In this document: positions 7,462-39,418 of the stretch, piece by piece
Numbering within the stretch: position 1 is the stretch's first letter
Layout: each line of letters begins with the position of its first letter
Source: Escherichia phage T4
DNA length: 64,000 nt
Sequence record: OL964735.1
Reading direction: 5' to 3' (one strand)
Translations under genes and position numbers: made by a program
Notes under the pieces: model-generated
Seen by the model: only the letters and a program-made list of their open reading frames with translations
The model's database searches: none
Told to the model about the DNA's origin: nothing

Positions 7462-7493
7462 TAATAATACCACGGTTTGAACTTGTTGTAAAC
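7462..7493 (-). promoter_or_regulatory. Early (sigma70-type) promoter, minus strand
   Basis: Minus sense TTTTTCACAAAGTT-GTTTAC-(17)-TGGTATTAT: A-rich upstream element, -35 and extended -10. Confidence 0.55.
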
Positions 7494-7570
7494 AACTTTG
7501 TGAAAAATATTTTAGGGAATGATAAGAAAGGAACGATAGCTTAGAATGGTAATATACAGAATGTGAGAAA

Positions 7571-9326: not shown

Positions 9327-10597
9327 TGGTGCTTAACCCTATGCATGATTTCTTTATTTTTACCGAGATTAAATCCGCGTTCGTTCGGATTTCCCAAATA
9401 ACCACATGTTCTTCTTATGGTATTCATCTTTTTAGGATCAGTTTCTCCACAAATAGAACAAACAAATCCGTTTTCAGTAGGAGTCATTTCATGGGTACTT
9501 CCACATGTAAAACATTTATCTACTGGCATATTAACACCAAAATAATCTAAATGCTGTGCAGCATAATCCCACACGGCCTCAAGACCTTTTAAGTTATTTT
9601 TCATATCAGGAAGTTCAACATAAGAAATGTGACCACCTGTCGCAATGAAATGATATGGCGCTTCACGAGAAATCTTTTCAAACGGAGTAATATTTTCTTC
9701 TACTGAAACATGGAAACTGTTAGTGTACCAGCCTTTATCGGTAACATCTTTTACGCTTCCATATTTTTCTGTATCGAGTTTACAGAAGCGATAACACAGG
9801 TTTTCAGCAGGAGTCGAATATAAACTAAAAGCAAATCCGGTTCTTTCAGTCCACTGTTTAAGATGAGCATTCATTTTAGTTAAAATTTCTCGTCCAATAT
9901 CACGACCGACAAGAATATTCAATTCGTGAATACCAATGTATCCTAAAGACACTGAACTTCTACCGTTTTTAAATAACTCAATTATGTCGTCATCAGGTTT
10001 AAGACGAACCCCGAATGCACCTTCTTGGTAAAGAATAGGAGCAACAGTAGCTTTAACTCCTTTTAAGGAACTAATTCTACACATCAAAGCTTCAAAACAT
10101 AAATCCATTCGTTCATTAAATAGCTCAACAAATTTCTGTTCATTGAACTGTGTTCCAATATAAGAATCTAACGCGATGCGAGGAAGATTCAGTGTTACAA
10201 CACCAAGATTATTGCGTCCATCAAGAATTTCATTGCCAGTCGAATCTTTCCATACGCTCAAGAAACTACGGCAACCCATCGGAGAAACAGGAACAGATGA
10301 ACCAGTGATAGCTTTATTGTTCTTAGCTGAAATAATATCAGGATACATCCTTTTGCTTGCGCACTCTAGAGCAAGCTGTTTAATATCATAGTTCGGATCG
10401 TCTTTATAAAGATTAACACCTTCTTCAACGAACATAACAAGCTTAGGGAAAATAGGAGTTATCCCATCACGACCAAGACCTTTAATACGATTTTTCAGAA
10501 TTGCTTTCTGAATCATTCGTTCAGTCCAGTCAGTTCCCGTACCAAATGTAATTGTTACAAAAGGAGTCTGTCCGTTTGAACTGAATAACGTGTTCAC
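9323..10597 (-). CDS. nrdD: Anaerobic ribonucleotide reductase NrdD, exon 2 (exon extends a few codons upstream of 10597 to the 3' splice site)
   Basis: C-terminal glycyl-radical motif RRTCGYLG and zinc-ribbon CxxC...CxxC; track start is a GTG inside the exon; exon-1 plus exon-2 ORF pieces total 605 aa as T4 NrdD. Confidence 0.85.
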   Translation of the reverse strand: MNTLFSSNGQTPFVTITFGTGTDWTERMIQKAILKNRIKGLGRDGITPIFPKLVMFVEEGVNLYKDDPNYDIKQLALECASKRMYPDIISAKNNKAITGSSVPVSPMGCRSFLSVWKDSTGNEILDGRNNLGVVTLNLPRIALDSYIGTQFNEQKFVELFNERMDLCFEALMCRISSLKGVKATVAPILYQEGAFGVRLKPDDDIIELFKNGRSSVSLGYIGIHELNILVGRDIGREILTKMNAHLKQWTERTGFAFSLYSTPAENLCYRFCKLDTEKYGSVKDVTDKGWYTNSFHVSVEENITPFEKISREAPYHFIATGGHISYVELPDMKNNLKGLEAVWDYAAQHLDYFGVNMPVDKCFTCGSTHEMTPTENGFVCSICGETDPKKMNTIRRTCGYLGNPNERGFNLGKNKEIMHRVKHQ

Positions 10598-11640
10598 TTC
10601 ATCAATGTGTTCAGTAGAGTTCGCTACTTCTCTACCCGTTTATATGAAACAATGTAATTTGGATAATTGTCATCTAAACACAAATCTTTAATACGACTTG
10701 GGTGGAGTTTTAAATCTTTAGCAGCATCCACAAATGATTTATAGATATTGTCATTTATTTTAACATATTCTGGGACGGGATGAATTGTTATTTTTATATC
10801 TATAACATTTGGATGATTACTAACCTGTTCTTCAGAGCATTTAAGAAATTTTGCAGCTGATTTAAAACTTCTAAATTTATTTCCGGATTTTAAAGCTATA
10901 GAAACAGTCTTTTTAGCCGTTCTACTACCAATATTATTTTTAACATGAGCTTCACTTCTACTATTATTTTTATAATGCTCAATCAATTTCTCTCGTATCT
11001 TATCTTTATGTTTTAAAGATAAGATTTTACCTTTATGGGCATTACTAAGTTTTTGCTTATGTTCTTCTGAATCCGGATATTTGTTAAATTTATATCCACC
11101 TATAGATTTATTAAGAATAAATTCGTTATTAAAATATTTCCTAATAAGCATTTCTTCATGTTTAAGGGCCGATTCATAAGAATCAAAAACTTGAAGAATT
11201 ATCCACTTAGCTTTATAATCTTTAAGCTTTTCTTTAACAAGCTTAGATGACGAATTGTATTCTTTCCAATTTGTATCTTTACCATATATAGTTTTGAATT
11301 TTTTAAAACCTATATAAAAAGACTTATCAGGAAATCTTACCATATAGGTAAATGCTACAGAATTGGCAATTTTTAAGCTTTTTCTTAATTTCCATTTCAT
11401 CGTTTCACCTCGTATTCATATTTATACGAGGATAAACAGCTGCATGTCACCATGCAGTTCAGACTATATCTTCAACTCTTAGAGTTGTCTGCCGTTTCGG
11501 GTCGCTTGACCCTACTCCCTTACATTCATCAGGGATAGTCGTTGGGCATTTACAGCTACTGCTGATTTAGCAACGGATTGTCTCAGTGAGAGTTTCCCGT
11601 TTTAGGCAGATTTTACATGAGCTTGACTTACGTTAACTCA
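10598..11640 (-). mobile_element. Group I self-splicing intron in nrdD (sunY-type); ORF in 3' half, catalytic core in 5' half; boundaries approximate
   Basis: nrdD reading frame is interrupted by about 1.03 kb; an ORF-free, GC-richer structured segment at 11400-11630 lies upstream of the intron ORF; a GIY-YIG endonuclease ORF lies within. Confidence 0.8.
10624..11400 (-). CDS. I-TevII: Intron-encoded GIY-YIG homing endonuclease I-TevII
   Basis: 258 aa; GIY-YIG-type N-terminus (SFYIGFKKFKTIYG); located inside the nrdD intron. Confidence 0.85.
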   Translation of the reverse strand: MKWKLRKSLKIANSVAFTYMVRFPDKSFYIGFKKFKTIYGKDTNWKEYNSSSKLVKEKLKDYKAKWIILQVFDSYESALKHEEMLIRKYFNNEFILNKSIGGYKFNKYPDSEEHKQKLSNAHKGKILSLKHKDKIREKLIEHYKNNSRSEAHVKNNIGSRTAKKTVSIALKSGNKFRSFKSAAKFLKCSEEQVSNHPNVIDIKITIHPVPEYVKINDNIYKSFVDAAKDLKLHPSRIKDLCLDDNYPNYIVSYKRVEK

Positions 11641-13328: not shown

Positions 13329-13514
13329 CTACACGTTCTCGAAGCTCAACCAGTTCAACCGATATTGGCATTTACCATCTTGCACCCAGTCTTCTATTTC
13401 GATAGGTTTAAGATAGTCGGAAAAATCGAAATCATAGTTTTCCGAAAATGCATCATGGTCTTCAATGATTTCGCTCAGAACTGCATCAACATCTAATTTA
13501 TTTTCAATATTCAT
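13329..13514 (-). CDS. hypothetical small acidic protein
   Basis: ORF track. Confidence 0.35.
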   Translation of the reverse strand: MNIENKLDVDAVLSEIIEDHDAFSENYDFDFSDYLKPIEIEDWVQDGKCQYRLNWLSFENV

Positions 13515-13717
13515 TTTTCACACCACCAACTGCTTACTTCAAAATCGGGTTCGCCATGTTCCCAGAACCAGGGGCCGATAGGAATCCACTTACCTTCATC
13601 GGTGACGTCATATTCTTCGGATTTAGCTAACCAAATCATGTATTCATAGAGTTTATATTCCAGGTCGCCTTCTGTTCCATCGCCTAGAAAAATAATTTGT
13701 TCATTTAATTCTATCAT
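13511..13717 (-). CDS. hypothetical small acidic protein
   Basis: ORF track; overlapping stop/start with neighbours. Confidence 0.4.
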   Translation of the reverse strand: MIELNEQIIFLGDGTEGDLEYKLYEYMIWLAKSEEYDVTDEGKWIPIGPWFWEHGEPDFEVSSWWCEK

Positions 13718-16529: not shown

Positions 16530-16559
16530 ATTATACCACATCCTTGTGGCAAAGTAAAC
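16530..16559 (-). promoter_or_regulatory. Early promoter, minus strand, driving coiled-coil paralog 2
   Basis: GTTTAC -35, 18-bp spacer, TGTGGTATAAT -10, then GAGGAG and ATG. Confidence 0.55.
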
Positions 16560-19472: not shown

Positions 19473-19498
19473 TTTGTGTTCCTCCGTAGTTGATAGTT

Positions 19499-19530
19499 GT
19501 ATAGTACCACAGAGGAACGGTCTTGTAAAC
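19499..19530 (-). promoter_or_regulatory. Early promoter, minus strand
   Basis: GTTTACA...TGTGGTACTATACAACTATCAAC conserved block. Confidence 0.5.
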
Positions 19531-19937: not shown

Positions 19938-20918
19938 TTATTTCAGAAGAGTAACCGTAGCGATTTCTTCCCAACCGTTTTTGTCGGTCATAATAAAGTC
20001 AGCAAGATAAAGTGCAGTACGCAGTGAAACATTACGTAAACGGTTAACATTGACTTTCATCCATGATAATGCTTTATAAGTTTCTTCATCAGAAAGACCA
20101 CGCTTTTGCATCATGTCGGTTGAAAGAATAACATCTTCAACCCTGACCATAATTTCTTCATTAGTGTGAACACCCAAATCCAAATAAACTGAGCGGGACA
20201 CTAATGCTTGTAAATGTGGAGCAAGTTTAGTACCACGGTCTAATTCGCGGTCAATGTCAACGTTTGTGATAAAAACAATTGTTCCTTTAAATTCAAACTC
20301 ACGCTCAATGCCTTTTTCTTCTAAGTAAGAAGATGCAGTGCTCCAGCAGACTTTACGGGTCTCTCCAGTGTCCAGAGCAGCTTTCAGAAGATTAAGAATG
20401 TCCATATCAGAGAAAACATCCACATCATCAATCAAAAGGACAGAATTCTCTTCACGATTATTCCAAAGCTGTTCATAAAGACCGATACCAGAGATTTTAC
20501 CGTTAATGCTTTTATACTCAATGTATCCAATATCATTTGCTTTATTCAAAGCTTTATCTAAAGAATATGTTTTACCAATACCCGCCGCACCAGAGATAAT
20601 TAATGAACGAATATTTCCGTTAATAATACCATTCGTCATCATTCCCATAACATTAAATCTTTTATTAATGCGGGTTTTCATATCTTCATATGATTCTTTA
20701 ACTTCTTCAACTTTTACACCATCATATGAAATGTCTGATTTGTAAACCCAAACACCGCGACGTTTACCGTCAATTTCAACAAAAACTTTACCATCTCCTT
20801 GTGCATCTACCGGAGCATTATCAGGGAACCATTCACCTAAGAGCTCAAAAGTTCCAGAGATTTCTTTACCGAAGTAGATACCCTTATTGATAGTTACAGT
20901 TTTCATTTTATTCTCCAA
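19938..20918 (-). CDS. P-loop NTPase (AAA-like ATPase)
   Basis: 326 aa; Walker A GAAGIGKT and Walker B-like LLIDDVD; preceded by promoter-like element at 20939-20970. Confidence 0.55.
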   Translation of the reverse strand: MENKMKTVTINKGIYFGKEISGTFELLGEWFPDNAPVDAQGDGKVFVEIDGKRRGVWVYKSDISYDGVKVEEVKESYEDMKTRINKRFNVMGMMTNGIINGNIRSLIISGAAGIGKTYSLDKALNKANDIGYIEYKSINGKISGIGLYEQLWNNREENSVLLIDDVDVFSDMDILNLLKAALDTGETRKVCWSTASSYLEEKGIEREFEFKGTIVFITNVDIDRELDRGTKLAPHLQALVSRSVYLDLGVHTNEEIMVRVEDVILSTDMMQKRGLSDEETYKALSWMKVNVNRLRNVSLRTALYLADFIMTDKNGWEEIATVTLLK

Positions 20919-20938
20919 ATCCGTATCAGTTGATAGTT

Positions 20939-20970
20939 GTATAGTACCATAAAGCTTTATGCTTGTAAAC
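20939..20970 (-). promoter_or_regulatory. Early promoter, minus strand, upstream of the P-loop ATPase ORF
   Basis: TTTTTTCACAAAACGGTTTACA...ATGGTACTATACAACTATCAACTGATA. Confidence 0.5.
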
Positions 20971-20990
20971 CGTTTTGTGAAAAAATTTTG

Positions 20991-21018
20991 AAATAAAAAA
21001 GGGAGCCCGAAGGCTCCC
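20991..21018 (-). terminator. Intrinsic terminator after the nucleotidyltransferase ORF
   Basis: GGGAGCC-UUCG-GGCUCCC followed by UUUUUUUAUUUC. Confidence 0.7.
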
Positions 21019-21020
21019 TA

Positions 21021-23414: not shown

Positions 23415-23544
23415 TACATACTCCTCTGAATCATATTAATAATGTTATTCACCAGATTATAAGTAAACATTGGGTAATTATATTGAATCATCACATATAT
23501 AACAAACAAAACTTTCATTCTCTTCTCCTTGGCAGTTGACAAGA

Positions 23545-23576
23545 TTACTATACCATAATCTTGTCAACTTGTAAAC
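23545..23576 (-). promoter_or_regulatory. Early promoter embedded in a 12-bp inverted repeat
   Basis: GTTTAC -35, TATAGT -10, flanked by CAGTTGACAAGATT / AATCTTGTCAACTTG dyad. Confidence 0.5.
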
Positions 23577-23741
23577 CATTAAATGACGTTTTCGATAAAA
23601 TTTTGAAGCTTTGTATGAGCATCAACCATGATTTTCATTTCTTCCTTGGCAAAAGCTGTGCCTCTTTCCCGAGAAGAACATTCATAGTCAGAAACTGCAT
23701 TAGCATATTCTTCAATTAGCTTCATTAAAAACATCTGTTTT

Positions 23742-24335: not shown

Positions 24336-24367
24336 GTATAGTACCACAGCTCAAACGGAAAGTAAAC
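24336..24367 (-). promoter_or_regulatory. Early promoter, minus strand
   Basis: GGTTTAC...TGTGGTACTATACAACC. Confidence 0.5.
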
Positions 24368-24377
24368 CGGTAAAATG

Positions 24378-24401
24378 AAAAAAAGTCTCCCGAAGGAGAC
24401 T
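24378..24401 (-). terminator. Intrinsic terminator after rI.-1
   Basis: AGUCUCC-UUCG-GGAGACU followed by UUUUUUCAUUUU. Confidence 0.65.
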
Positions 24402-26527: not shown

Positions 26528-26976
26528 TCAACAATCACAATTTCTAATTTAGAGGAATATGTATCTAAAATCCCCTCAATAATATCCCAGTTCCCTTTAC
26601 CTATGCCTGCACCAATCCTAGGCATATAGATTGTAGGTTTAATCAGTTTATTTTCACCAAACTCATTTAATTCTAACATACAATTCATTAAAGCGGAATA
26701 CTCAAAATTTGGCCCTGGTTGAAATTGAGTATAAAGATTGAAGCAGTAAGCTTTATGAGTCCTAAAGTATTTTTCATAGACTGAGTAAGAACCGAGTTTA
26801 GTTACATCACCCCATTCAGTCTGTAATTTATCAGCTTCCAAAATTTTAGGGAAAGCTTTGGTTAATTGACCCGCTACGCCTGAACCCATAGTATGAAAAC
26901 AATTACATCCATGTGCAATATTTTTACCTTCAGCGAAAAGGGCGACAATATCGCCCTTGATATATTTTACAATCAT
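26509..26976 (-). CDS. Macro-domain protein (predicted ADP-ribose binding/processing)
   Basis: 155 aa; KGDIV...NIAHGCNCFHTMGSGVAGQL and PRIGAGIGKG resemble the macro-domain N-terminal and glycine-rich phosphate-binding loops. Confidence 0.5.
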   Translation of the reverse strand: MIVKYIKGDIVALFAEGKNIAHGCNCFHTMGSGVAGQLTKAFPKILEADKLQTEWGDVTKLGSYSVYEKYFRTHKAYCFNLYTQFQPGPNFEYSALMNCMLELNEFGENKLIKPTIYMPRIGAGIGKGNWDIIEGILDTYSSKLEIVIVDWEPLL

Positions 26977-28327: not shown

Positions 28328-28354
28328 GTTATTCTCCTCTTAACTGATAGAAAA

Positions 28355-28384
28355 ATTATACCACAGTCAAGAGGAAAAGTAAAC
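28355..28384 (-). promoter_or_regulatory. Early promoter for regB
   Basis: GTTTAC -35 and TGGTATAAT extended -10. Confidence 0.6.
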
Positions 28385-31197: not shown

Positions 31198-31249
31198 ATG
31201 TTTCCTTTAAATGTAAATATTTTTATTATTCTATCCTAGAATTGTGATA

Positions 31250-31278
31250 ATATATTCACAATTCTAGGAGTTGTAAAC
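31250..31278 (-). promoter_or_regulatory. Early promoter upstream of ipII
   Basis: GTTTAC -35 with AT-rich -10. Confidence 0.4.
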
Positions 31279-31894: not shown

Positions 31895-31947
31895 ATGTTT
31901 CCTTTAAATTATTTTAATTAGTAATTGTCTATTCAAGTAATTGTGAA

Positions 31948-31978
31948 TATACTATCACAATTCCAAGAGAAAGTAAAC
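31948..31978 (-). promoter_or_regulatory. Early promoter upstream of ipIII
   Basis: GTTTAC-(17)-TGATAGTAT. Confidence 0.45.
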
Positions 31979-35385: not shown

Positions 35386-35447
35386 AGTATTTCCTTAGGT
35401 TGGTATAATTAGATAATATAATATCACGTTTCTAATAGATTGTAAAC

Positions 35448-35783: not shown

Positions 35784-35839
35784 AATGTTTTCCTCATTTG
35801 TATAGGCTCATAATATCTCAATCATGAGCCTATGTAAAC

Positions 35840-36103
35840 TTATTTCATATTATTGAAATATTCTTCTGCGATTTCGTCGTTATCATGGTAAACTTTAGAA
35901 GACAGTTTAACATAACTTTCAGCAGTGAACATGTTAATCACAACCTTTACAGTATACCACTGACCGTCTTCATTACCCATTACTGCGTAAGTTTCAAACA
36001 TCGGATGGTCAGGACCGATAACTTTAATATCATTCACCGTACGACCGAAATCTTCTGAAACACATTTCATAAAGAAGTTGAAAAGTTCACCGTAATTATC
36101 CAT
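35840..36103 (-). CDS. hypothetical protein
   Basis: Start moved to ATG at 36103 (MDNYGELFNFF) behind GGAGA; promoter-like element 36145-36176 upstream. Confidence 0.4.
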   Translation of the reverse strand: MDNYGELFNFFMKCVSEDFGRTVNDIKVIGPDHPMFETYAVMGNEDGQWYTVKVVINMFTAESYVKLSSKVYHDNDEIAEEYFNNMK

Positions 36104-36144
36104 TTTATTCTCCAAGTTATTTTCTGTATCAGTAGTTGATAGTT

Positions 36145-36176
36145 GTATAGTACCATGGAAGAACAAGGATGTAAAC
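36145..36176 (-). promoter_or_regulatory. Early promoter, minus strand
   Basis: TTCACAAAACTGTTTACA...ATGGTACTATACAACTATCAACTACTGATAC. Confidence 0.5.
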
Positions 36177-36305
36177 AGTTTTGTGAAAAAATTTTTAAAA
36201 AGTTTTAGGGAATTCTAGGGCGGAGAGGGGCAATTAAAAGATAGGATAATATATTATAAAGGGTATAAACTAAATGATGCCTAGAGAGGTCTGGAAAGGC
36301 TTAGA

Positions 36306-38993: not shown

Positions 38994-39018
38994 TTTATTC
39001 TCCTCAGTAGTTGATAGG

Positions 39019-39050
39019 GTAATAGTATCACAGCTAAAACCCTATGTAAA
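39019..39050 (-). promoter_or_regulatory. Early promoter, minus strand
   Basis: TTCACAAAGTTGTTTACA...TGTGATACTATTACCCTATCAACTAC; -10 flanked by 6-bp dyad. Confidence 0.5.
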
Positions 39051-39069
39051 CAACTTTGTGAAATATTTA

Positions 39070-39357: not shown

Positions 39358-39386
39358 TTTTATTTTCCTAATTAATTTTGATGAGG

Positions 39387-39418
39387 TAATAGTATCACTA
39401 CCTCATCAGTATGTAAAC
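39387..39418 (-). promoter_or_regulatory. Early promoter for ipI
   Basis: TTCACAAAGTTGTTTACA...GTGATACTATTACC with 8-bp dyad GATGAGGTA/TACCTCATC flanking the -10. Confidence 0.5.

Follow-up and report, generated by a model that had tools for sequence, protein, structure and literature searches.

The site at positions 23531-23580, on the minus strand of the 64,000-nucleotide stretch of DNA analysed here (the window), is the early promoter of bacteriophage T4 ahead of mobD.2, with a stem-loop overlapping it. The stretch is 100% identical to T4, and the site lies between mobD.2a and mobD.2. We put at roughly three in four the probability of this reading as a whole, in which the hairpin acts in RNA read through from upstream, most likely as a transcript-boundary element. 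The inverted repeats are real and far beyond chance, and the arrangement of promoter plus stem-loop is ordinary for T4, having been known since 1986.

The mobD.2 promoter and the T4 early class

The mobD.2 promoter has GTTTAC at -35 (23571-23576; phage Lutter has a 'promoter' annotation on its orthologous 30 nt) and an extended -10, TGG-TATAGT (23547-23555), that fits TGn plus TAnnnT. The spacing of a T4 early promoter, TTTACA-N17-TATAGT, is present. The stop codon of mobD.2a (23579-23581) is 2 nt upstream of the -35, and the upstream sequence attttatcgaaaacgtcatttaatg, which overlaps the end of mobD.2a, is A/T-rich and lacks the TTTCACAAA motif of five other sites. Within the spacer is the 5′ arm, AGTTGACAAGATTA (23569-23556), of a perfect 14-bp inverted repeat. 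The loop between the arms is TGGTATAG, and the 3′ arm, TAATCTTGTCAACT (23547-23534), has as its first base the last base of the -10 and holds the predicted start at ~23540 (~57,953 in NC_000866). A predicted leader of ~22 nt leads to the ATG at 23518, preceded by a RegB-like Shine-Dalgarno sequence (GGAGAAGAGAA; with the ATG, 23516-23528), and both the orientation and the Shine-Dalgarno fit an early promoter. The cassette thus runs from the upstream stop codon through promoter, start-site region and Shine-Dalgarno to the ATG and occupies the entire intercistronic gap. RNA from 23520-23585 folds at -22.8 kcal/mol, with a z-score of -5.45. It belongs to the very strong sigma-70 promoters of T4's early class and would be used by unmodified host RNA polymerase right after infection.

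Compilations of T4 early promoters (Pe) are those of Wilkens and Rueger and of Miller et al. 2003, with a review by Hinton (2010, PMC2988021). These promoters have GTTTAC at -36 to -31, TGn and a -10 of TAnnnT and stand ahead of early genes on the counter-clockwise strand, all as found here. They also have an UP region that is A-rich at -40 to -44 and A/T-rich over about -40 to -60; the mobD.2 site differs in nothing essential, its -10 being TATAGT and its UP region weak at best, with no TTTCACAAA. The pattern GTTTAC-N15-TGnTAnnAT matches 11 times in the window, always on the minus strand, and never in 100 dinucleotide shuffles. A generic sigma-70 scan lacks discrimination, with 85 sites in the window and 80 in shuffled sequence. 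The mobD.2 site, with its TATAGT, is a 12th promoter, and ipII (31278) and e.7 (35839) are two further ones without the TG. The initial annotation was correct in reading these sites as minus-strand early promoters, which match the published consensus. Its proposal that at least twelve of them share one motif holds for GTTTAC and the extended -10 (11 strict matches plus the mobD.2 site) but not for the A-rich upstream stretch: TTTCACAAA-N3-GTTTAC is present at only five promoters (7488, 20965, 36171, 39046 and 39413; 0.02 expected) and so is a feature of a subset. Early promoters also precede e.6 (35418-35447), nrdC.4 (16530-16559) and gene 55.6 (7464-7505, bearing the TTTCACAAA upstream element). 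Those of mobD.5 (24367-24338, feature 24338-24401) and nrdC.10 (20970-20941, feature 20926-21019) each follow an intrinsic terminator, at 24401-24384 (UUCG loop, T run) and 21019-21000, respectively. Rfam finds nothing at the promoters, its matches in the window being tRNAs and the nrdD group I intron only.

Stem-loops around the -10 element

An inverted repeat enclosing the -10 had been noted at three or more sites, and this is borne out: the stem is 14 bp at the mobD.2 promoter (23576), 10 bp and perfect at 39418 and 7 bp at 39051, with more elsewhere. At the ipI promoter (39379-39418) the arms 39408-39397 and 39390-39379 flank the -10 and pair over 12 bp if one G·U is admitted. At the trna.4 promoter (39007-39051) the arms are 39045-39039 and 39020-39014, the 5′ arm falling just beyond the range 39003-39035 originally given for this dyad. 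Further dyads are found at the promoters of e.7 (35802-35839; arms 35833-35821 and 35814-35802 around the -10), ipIII (31939-31978; 31962-31955 and 31946-31939), ipII (31234-31278; a 14-bp stem, 31269-31256 and 31247-31234), regB (28332-28384; 28378-28364 and 28346-28332, spacer with Shine-Dalgarno) and nrdC.8 (19478-19530; 19518-19506 and 19490-19478), the spacer of the last being paired with ACUACGGAGGAAC, Shine-Dalgarno included. The e.8 promoter (36132-36176) has no embedded stem. Arm sequences are unrelated between promoters (AGTTGACAAGATTA, TCCTAGAATTGTGA, TGATGAGGTA, ATAGGCTCAT, ATAGGGT), and arms of 7-15 bp and loops of 5-18 nt vary from one promoter to the next.

Among 33 T4 early promoters, 11 have a stem with a score of at least 7 bracketing the -10, against 1.8 when the flanks are shuffled (maximum 7 in 500 shuffles), and seven have a score of at least 10, against 0.07 expected; in these shuffle tests paralogous promoters within the 33 are non-independent data points. 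The segment from -36 to +36 folds with z < -3 at 13 of the 33, as do 4% of control windows. Some 60% of T4 early promoters have no embedded structure, and the hairpin is therefore not required for promoter function. An intrinsic terminator lies upstream of 1 of the 17 promoters with an embedded stem and of 5 of the 16 without, an apparent trend.

Stem-loops of this kind were annotated in T4 as early as 1986. GenBank X04567.1, covering the 58.3-65.5 kb early region, lists inverted repeats A-D, at ipIII, ipII, denV and ORF 61.9 (regB), with the -10 in the loop of the upstream gene's 'put. stem-loop structure; pot. transcription terminator', a geometry identical to that seen here. The ipIII, ipII and regB stems above are its 'inverted repeat A/A′', 'inverted repeat B/B′' and 'imp. 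inverted repeat D/D′', and at denV and regB the ribosome-binding site is in the 3′ arm. The mobD region lies outside this record, and the mobD.2 site adds one more example to the group. AT-rich stem-loops have also been described at the IP-gene promoters of T-even phages.

Promoter-early stem-loops (PeSLs) were named by Krisch's group in RB49/phi1 (Arbiol et al. 2010, PMC2839356) and described in PST/T4 and nt-1/KVP40 (Comeau et al. 2014, PMC4122927). As here, a PeSL consists of an intercistronic stop codon, an AT-rich region, an early promoter, a stem-loop, a Shine-Dalgarno and an ATG, with the stem-loop often in the stretch that separates the -35 from the -10, or over the -10, and is found in hyperplastic regions beside small variable ORFs, relatives having chimeric cassettes. 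The mobD.2 site has this order (stop 23581-23579, stem 23569-23534, ATG 23518) and this setting, being surrounded by the mobD.1-mobD.5 ORFs, with two extra ORFs in RB6. A promoter of the RB49 type has the same geometry of stem and -10; RB49 stems are, however, made of G-runs and C-runs on near-perfect TTGACA/TATAAT promoters, whereas those of T4 are AU-rich and variable and accompany GTTTAC promoters. According to the figure legend in PMC4122927 the PST/T4 stems lie immediately upstream of the promoter, whereas about one-third of the T4 early promoters here have the stem around the -10. Termination or attenuation by a PeSL stem-loop has been demonstrated, with a reporter, for one RB49 stem-loop only.

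Comparative evidence and alternative explanations

The predicted mobD.2 start lies inside the 3′ arm, and the hairpin would therefore form only in RNA read through from upstream. The nearest upstream source of such RNA would be the mobD.5 promoter at 24367, and a terminator scan finds no intrinsic terminator between it and the mobD.2 promoter. There the hairpin would pause or attenuate transcription arriving from upstream, or shield the 3′ end of the preceding message. The scan, which does find the terminators at 24401-24384 and 21019-21000, reports no intrinsic terminator at the mobD.2 stem; as a candidate terminator this stem was rejected, being AU-rich and followed by GCCAAGGAG with no U run. 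The embedded hairpins in general are poor candidates for classical intrinsic terminators, as they are AU-rich and none has a U run behind it.

Motif and stem elements are conserved in relatives, and the differences between relatives and paralogs are consistent with RNA pairing. With G·T pairs admitted, the sense-strand stems gain 35 bp and the antisense-strand stems 7 bp. Both changes in the mobD.2 stem of RB6, T2 and Lutter are A-to-G opposite T; the dmd promoter hairpin, paralogous to that of mobD.2, differs from it by two compensatory and two wobble changes, and in RB6 the dmd hairpin has an additional C-to-T opposite G. In three diverged lineages the regB promoters each pair the spacer with the Shine-Dalgarno in an 11-15 bp stem of their own, formed from different sequences. 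Independent stem substitutions are few, five single changes that keep pairing and one, in T2 nrdC.8, that breaks it. The G·U asymmetry and the compensatory changes favour an RNA-level role for the stems. Scans of IMG/VR returned 4 loci for MobD.1, 11 for RegB and 5 for Dmd, mostly near-identical to T4, which is enough for regB and too few for formal covariation statistics at the mobD.2 site. The regB promoters were compared by folding each lineage separately, since indels mis-register the lineages and make pair counts from MAFFT/RNAalifold unreliable. The diverged dmd loci of Mizar, KMB38 and DK-13 are uninformative, as dmd there abuts the upstream gene with no intergenic promoter.

The dyads could instead be selected in DNA, as recombination sites or cruciforms through which cassettes and small genes are shuffled, deleted and circularised, as in the PeSL shuffling model, the RNA hairpin being a by-product; we regard this as unlikely. 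Crossovers within or beside the stem-loop and mini-circles have been reported for PeSLs (Arbiol et al. 2010, PMC2839356). Chimeric promoters occur in RB6 (25652) and T2 (5187), joining a trna.4-type 5′ half to an ipI-type leader 3′ half with the crossover in the -10 or loop region; in L018-L020 the regB cassette is similar to that of T4 denV, and the two extra ORFs of RB6 lie between mobD.1 and mobD.2, beside the promoter discussed here. The chimeric cassettes are at the ipI/trna.4 locus of RB6 and T2, none being found at mobD.2. The stem is lost in them, however, so that recombination destroys the dyad rather than requires it. Homologous recombination needs only the shared promoter sequence, not the dyad, and the arms, differing among cassettes, add little homology. 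G·T is tolerated on the sense strand only, and the A-to-G and C-to-T changes would be A·C mismatches on the other strand of a cruciform. Taken together, the share of promoters with the -10 in a stem, the sense-only G·U pairs, the terminator trend and the predicted masking of ribosome-binding sites (below) argue that the stems act in read-through RNA and not solely as recombination sites.

An operator was among the proposals of the initial annotation; a shared one, at which a dimeric phage or host protein covering the -10 would silence early promoters some minutes into infection, is very improbable. Repressor sites classically have this geometry, with the dyad centred on the -10, and the mechanism of early-promoter shut-off is described in the literature as incompletely understood, but the proposal is contradicted by the arms themselves: no half-site sequence recurs, and arm sequence, arm length and loop length all differ between promoters. 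The ~60% of early promoters that are dyad-free are nonetheless all shut off, and relatives preserve pairing, including G·U, rather than sequence.

The leader box ACAACTATCAACTAC is exact at 19486-19500 (nrdC.8) and 36132-36146 (e.8), matches at 13 of 15 positions at 20926-20940 (nrdC.10) and, as the variant TACCCTATCAACTAC, at 11 of 15 at 39007-39021 (trna.4), always at a fixed offset behind the -10, which upholds the leader conservation first noted at about 19487, 20927, 36137 and 39005. Counted freely across the window, the 10-mer CTATCAACTA shows no enrichment (7 occurrences against 6 expected); the leader box is non-random in its fixed position right after the -10, not in its free frequency. 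Against chance, for which the initial annotation had named shuffled sequence as the comparison for dyads and downstream conservation alike, the dyads stand, as does the leader box in its fixed position, and the free 10-mer does not. The information content across the 33 T4 early promoters is ~0.5-0.7 bit per position from -3 to +7 (consensus aCTATCAAcT), and the predicted +1, 7 nt past the -10 and inside the 3′ arms, is an A at 12 of 14 sites. The leader box would extend from about -6 to +9 relative to this start, its transcribed part being +1 to +9, and is within the open-complex region of RNA polymerase; it therefore does not constitute conservation beyond the polymerase contacts, as had been claimed. 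Additional consensus positions around the start site are part of the extended T4 early-promoter consensus in the literature, and the box belongs to that consensus as its start-site and initial-transcribed portion, in which -1 is a pyrimidine, +1 an A and the discriminator rich in A/T.

A 5′-terminal structure or processing site on the promoter's own transcript, formed by hairpin or leader box and controlling stability, had also been suggested. The partial transcription of the leader box, and the conservation of some leaders right up to the ATG, would suit a 5′-terminal element. With initiation at the usual distance from the -10, however, the predicted start (23540) is inside the 3′ arm, the transcript would be missing all of the 5′ arm and half the 3′ arm, and a 5′ hairpin is geometrically excluded. 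Promoters with the full leader box are, moreover, unstructured (z of +0.9 at 36110-36180; -0.6 to +1.3 for the class). The suggested nuclease processing site is real in that the 3′ end of the conserved leader, GGAGAAUAAAA, at the Shine-Dalgarno, is the known RegB/S1 cleavage site, but the leader box is not that site. The endoribonuclease RegB, with S1, targets GGAGRAYARAA in the translation initiation regions of early genes, inactivating early mRNAs, with no particular sequence required 5′ of GGAG (Durand et al. 2006, PMC1702504). Here the leaders end in GGAGAATAAAA, the consensus being exact at 39003, 36113 and 20916 and 10-25 nt downstream of the leader box, and the mobD.2 sequence at 23528-23518 is a candidate RegB site that departs from the consensus at one base, the Y position, and is predicted to lie largely unpaired. 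A terminal element of the promoter's own transcript is accordingly scarcely credible.

That the repeats arose by chance in AT-rich intergenic DNA, an idea that the undiscriminating sigma-70 scan and the unenriched 10-mer might encourage, is refuted by the specific motif count (11 against 0 expected), the stem-score shuffles and the folding z-scores, and opposed by the fixed offset of the leader box and the conservation of the elements in relatives.

Predicted masking of ribosome-binding sites and transcript origin

At the regB, nrdC.8 and denV promoters a stem equivalent to that of mobD.2 would instead conceal the ribosome-binding site and RegB site. Predicted accessibility of the Shine-Dalgarno is on average 0.34 for read-through RNA as against 0.66 for RNA from the promoter itself, and masking in read-through RNA is predicted at 9 of the 33 promoters (regB, nrdC.8 and seven others). 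None is predicted for the mobD.2 Shine-Dalgarno, which has a probability of being unpaired of 0.72 in read-through RNA and 0.62 in its own; being unmasked in both transcripts, it is outside the reach of this mechanism. In T4 gene e, soc, 49 and I-TevI, long transcripts have the ribosome-binding site masked, and it becomes free when transcription starts at a promoter inside the hairpin; the internal promoter is late or middle. Promoters at regB, nrdC.8, denV and others share with these genes the promoter within a hairpin and an RNA structure set by the origin of transcription; they differ in that the internal promoter is early, and at mobD.2 the Shine-Dalgarno is outside the stem. The additional regulatory layer that the downstream conservation had been taken to imply is only partly right, and all of it has already been described.

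As a discovery this is small, since both the T4 early-promoter consensus and promoter/stem-loop cassettes are in work from 1986, 1994, 2010 and 2014. Of possible interest to T4 specialists are the finding that about one-third of early promoters have the -10 in a stem, the G·U pairs confined to the sense strand, the terminator trend and the predicted masking at 9 of 33 promoters. Tentatively, and as a possibility we would not favour at present, the hairpins in ~40% of T4 early promoters might be a genome-wide device that marks transcript origin. If so, read-through RNA would be structured at each cassette and RNA from the cassette's own promoter would be open, the structure hiding the ribosome-binding and RegB site or capping the 3′ end of the upstream message after RegB cleavage some nucleotides further downstream. 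Each early gene's translation and its sensitivity to RegB would then be set by the promoter from which its RNA originates, and the principle of gene e, soc and 49 would be carried from late promoters to the whole early class.

Early promoters and their leader sequences

The sequence surrounding the mobD.2 promoter element (23531-23580, minus strand), located between the mobD.2a stop codon (23581-23579) and the mobD.2 ATG (23518), is 100% identical to that of bacteriophage T4 (T4T, RB55, RB59 and other T4 records). The whole window aligns with T4T, starting at ~34,200 of T4T; its first 42.8 kb, running from gene 46 to gene 4, is the counter-clockwise block of early and middle genes, and clockwise baseplate genes follow. 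The pattern GTTTAC-N15-TGnTAnnAT has 11 matches in the window, every one on the minus strand, and none in 100 dinucleotide shuffles of the window. With TGG-TATAGT, the mobD.2 promoter is a twelfth member, and the promoters of ipII and e.7, which lack the TG, are two more, bearing out the repeated minus-strand promoter described in the initial annotation. All are positioned directly upstream of an annotated early-region gene, namely 55.6 (7493), nrdC.4 (16559), nrdC.8 (19530), nrdC.10 (20970), mobD.2 (23576), mobD.5 (24367), regB (28384), ipII (31278), ipIII (31978), e.6 (35447), e.7 (35839), e.8 (36176), trna.4 (39051) and ipI (39418), all minus strand. As reviewed, the T4 early consensus has GTTTAC at -36 to -31, an A-rich UP sequence at -40 to -44 and a GT-rich sequence before -12, and T4 early promoters form an 'uber' UP/-35/TGn/-10 class 'with additional regions of consensus'. 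The window sites are T4 early promoters; the mobD.2 site has all the sequence features of one but a strong UP element, and the 30 nt orthologous to it carry a 'promoter' annotation in the related phage Lutter. The A-rich upstream stretch TTTTCACAAA that had been taken as shared is real, with 5 promoter sites versus 0.02 expected, and is present at these five only.

For 33 promoters, those of the window plus those from the remaining T4T early regions, information content is found in the UP region (-59 to -38), then in the -35, TGn and -10, in a separate block from -3 to +7 (aCTATCAAcT, ~0.5-0.7 bit per position) and in a conserved Shine-Dalgarno sequence, GAGGAG. Exact copies of the leader box ACAACTATCAACTAC lie at 19486-19500 and 36132-36146, with matches of 13 of 15 positions at 20926-20940 and 11 of 15 at 39007-39021, so leader conservation does occur, at a fixed offset, at the four sites originally named. 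Taken freely, a leader-box 10-mer shows no enrichment across the window; it departs from chance in its constant placement directly after the -10. With the +1 placed at the usual distance, 7 nt after the -10, it is an A in 12 of the 14 window promoters. The leader box would then cover ~-6 to +9, taking in the discriminator, the start itself (T at -1, A at +1) and the bases transcribed first, and so would lie inside the polymerase footprint rather than beyond the polymerase contacts, as had been proposed. In its 3' part the conserved leader holds GGAGAATAAAA, with exact copies at 39003, 36113 and 20916; this is the published cleavage site of RegB/S1, the endoribonuclease activity that inactivates early mRNAs by cleavage, and a RegB-like site is present 5 nt past the stem at the mobD.2 promoter. 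The suggested nuclease processing site is therefore found in this 3' part and not in the leader box itself.

Five or six early cassettes are near-identical over ~95 nt, from AAAATTTTTTCACAAAAC through TGGTACTATACAACTATCAACTACTGATACGGATTTGGAGAATAAAATGAAAA (window 36103-36176 and 20906-20970; ~27065 in L004, and ~47101 and 43687 in L005, both further T4-region sequences), differing in the 15-nt spacer between the -35 and TGn; repeats of this length could give rise to deletions or duplications. A perfect 14-nt palindrome with a HindIII site, CATAAAGCTTTATG, is common to the promoter of nrdC.10 (20950-20963) and one near frd.3 (L005 ~26868-26881; T4T ~146,888). It is located in the spacer, overlapping the TG of the extended -10, and its arms abut with no loop. 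Relative to T4T, the window is also missing three segments, of 100, 102 and 100 bp, at 13359/13360, ~13615-13625 and 30897/30898. The third takes with it the ipII stop codon, the first ~50 nt of denV and the entire denV early promoter, a member of the same family (GTTTAC-ATCTCCTGTAGGTA-TGA-TACTAT-AGACCTATCAACTACAGGAGAAC) with a leader box and a stem pairing spacer with Shine-Dalgarno sequence. In a search of the phage collection, all matches listed cross junction 30897/30898 in two pieces, so that none of the listed records shares the deletion. The three absences have the look of an edit made to the window rather than of natural variation.

Inverted repeats around the -10

At the mobD.2 promoter the -10 is enclosed by a perfect 14 bp stem (23569-23556/23547-23534) with the loop TGGTATAG. 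Stems around the -10, described in the initial annotation for this site, trna.4 and ipI, are present at eight window promoters, the others being those of ipI (39408-39397/39390-39379; 10 bp perfect, 12 with one G.U), trna.4 (39045-39039/39020-39014; 7 bp), e.7 (35833-35821/35814-35802; 13 bp, one G.U), ipIII (31962-31955/31946-31939; 8 bp), ipII (31269-31256/31247-31234; 14 bp), regB (28378-28364/28346-28332; 15 bp, two G.U) and nrdC.8 (19518-19506/19490-19478; 13 bp, with G.U pairs), all minus strand. A score of >=7 for a stem around the -10 was obtained for 11 of the 33 promoters, versus 1.8 with shuffled flanks (maximum 7 in 500) and 1.9 when 3' halves were swapped between promoters, and a score of >=10 for seven, versus 0.07 expected. 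The dyads are thus commoner than in shuffled sequence and the observation is real. Folding of the -36 to +36 segments gave z below -3 for 13 of the 33 promoters versus 4% of 150 same-strand control windows (Mann-Whitney p = 0.002); for the mobD.2 segment the folding energy is -22.8 kcal/mol (z -5.45).

Possible RNA-level selection and cassette exchange

Allowing G.T pairs adds 35 bp to the stems in the sense strand versus 7 bp in the antisense strand, where base composition predicts near equality. Both changes in the mobD.2 stem in the relatives RB6, T2, Lutter and those in IMG/VR are A-to-G opposite T, and the paralogous dmd-promoter hairpin differs from it by two compensatory and two wobble changes, with an additional C-to-T opposite G in RB6. 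Similar substitutions are an A-to-G opposite T in the RB6 trna.4 stem and a C-to-T opposite G in the stem of the T2 ipI-type cassette; the T2 trna.4-type 5' arm is shifted within the spacer with the stem still kept. The regB promoters of three diverged lineages each have their own 11-15 bp spacer/Shine-Dalgarno stem, with different sequences. There is one pair-breaking change, in T2 nrdC.8. These sequence comparisons point to selection acting on the sense-strand RNA.

The main rival explanation, compatible with an RNA role, is that the dyads serve cassette recombination at the DNA level. Promoters at RB6 ~25652 and T2 ~5187, in the internal-protein locus, are chimeric, with a trna.4-type 5' half (spacer) and an ipI-type 3' half (leader) joined by a crossover in the -10/loop region; their stem is lost, and they are the expected outcome of recombination between cassettes. 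The regB cassette of a diverged lineage (L018-L020 ~340-400; RegB ~68% identical) is close to the T4 denV cassette (L003 30898-30997; ATCTCCTGTA.G ... CT.ACAGGAGAA), a likeness suggesting that cassettes may move between genes. Directly downstream of the orthologous cassette in RB6, the mobD.1-mobD.2 interval has two extra small ORFs (10587-11040), which fits a hyperplastic region.

Possible roles and relation to known cassettes

The transcription start is predicted to fall inside the 3' arm; both arms would therefore be present only in read-through RNA from upstream, and the 5' hairpin originally proposed for the promoter's own transcript is discounted. A terminator scan found no intrinsic terminator between the upstream promoter P(mobD.5), at 24367, and the mobD.2 site, and RNA reading through from P(mobD.5) would enter the hairpin. 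Our best guess is that the hairpin may act there as an attenuator, a pause site or a protector of the 3'-end of the upstream message.

Masking of the ribosome-binding site is predicted elsewhere in the set: mean Shine-Dalgarno accessibility is 0.34 in read-through RNA versus 0.66 in the promoter's own RNA, and at 9 of 33 sites, including regB, nrdC.8 and modB, the sequence is masked in read-through RNA only. The predicted values at mobD.2, 0.72 and 0.62, respectively, argue against masking there. All the embedded stems lack a U run after them and are rich in A and U, and the mobD.2 stem accordingly fails as an intrinsic terminator. Six early promoters have a canonical T4 terminator (UUCG tetraloop plus T run) 14-31 nt upstream (24384-24401 and 21000-21019 in the window, with equivalents in L004 and L005), its T run merging into the UP element. 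Among promoters with an embedded stem, 1 of 17 is preceded by such a terminator, versus 5 of 16 among those without, a weak association consistent with stem and terminator being alternative means of dealing with transcripts that arrive from upstream. A shared operator, also suggested initially, is rejected, as stem sequences are unrelated from promoter to promoter.

All of this lies within the published record of T4 and its relatives. In GenBank X04567.1, which spans the T4 early region at 58.3-65.5 kb, the inverted repeats A/A', B/B', C/C' and D/D' are each labelled 'put. stem-loop structure; pot. transcription terminator' for the gene upstream, with the -10 of the ipIII, ipII, denV and ORF 61.9 (regB) promoters in the loop, the same geometry as at mobD.2, and a ribosome-binding site within the 3' arm at denV and regB. 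Arbiol et al. 2010 (PMC2839356) named such promoter/stem-loop cassettes PeSLs (promoter early stem-loops) and described T-even internal-protein gene promoters with weaker, AT-rich stem-loops; Comeau et al. 2014 (PMC4122927) extended PeSLs to PST/T4, with the consensus TTTACW-N17-TAYWAT. In an RB49-type phage, the promoter TTGACA-N17-TAAGAT has its -10 enclosed by the stem GGGGTA/TACCCC, a geometry identical to that of the T4 sites, and the mobD.2 site has the structure of a PeSL. What is added here is modest and quantitative only: how large a share of T4 early promoters enclose the -10 in a stem, the bias of G.U pairs in the stems towards the sense strand, and a weak tendency for promoters with an embedded stem to lack an upstream terminator.
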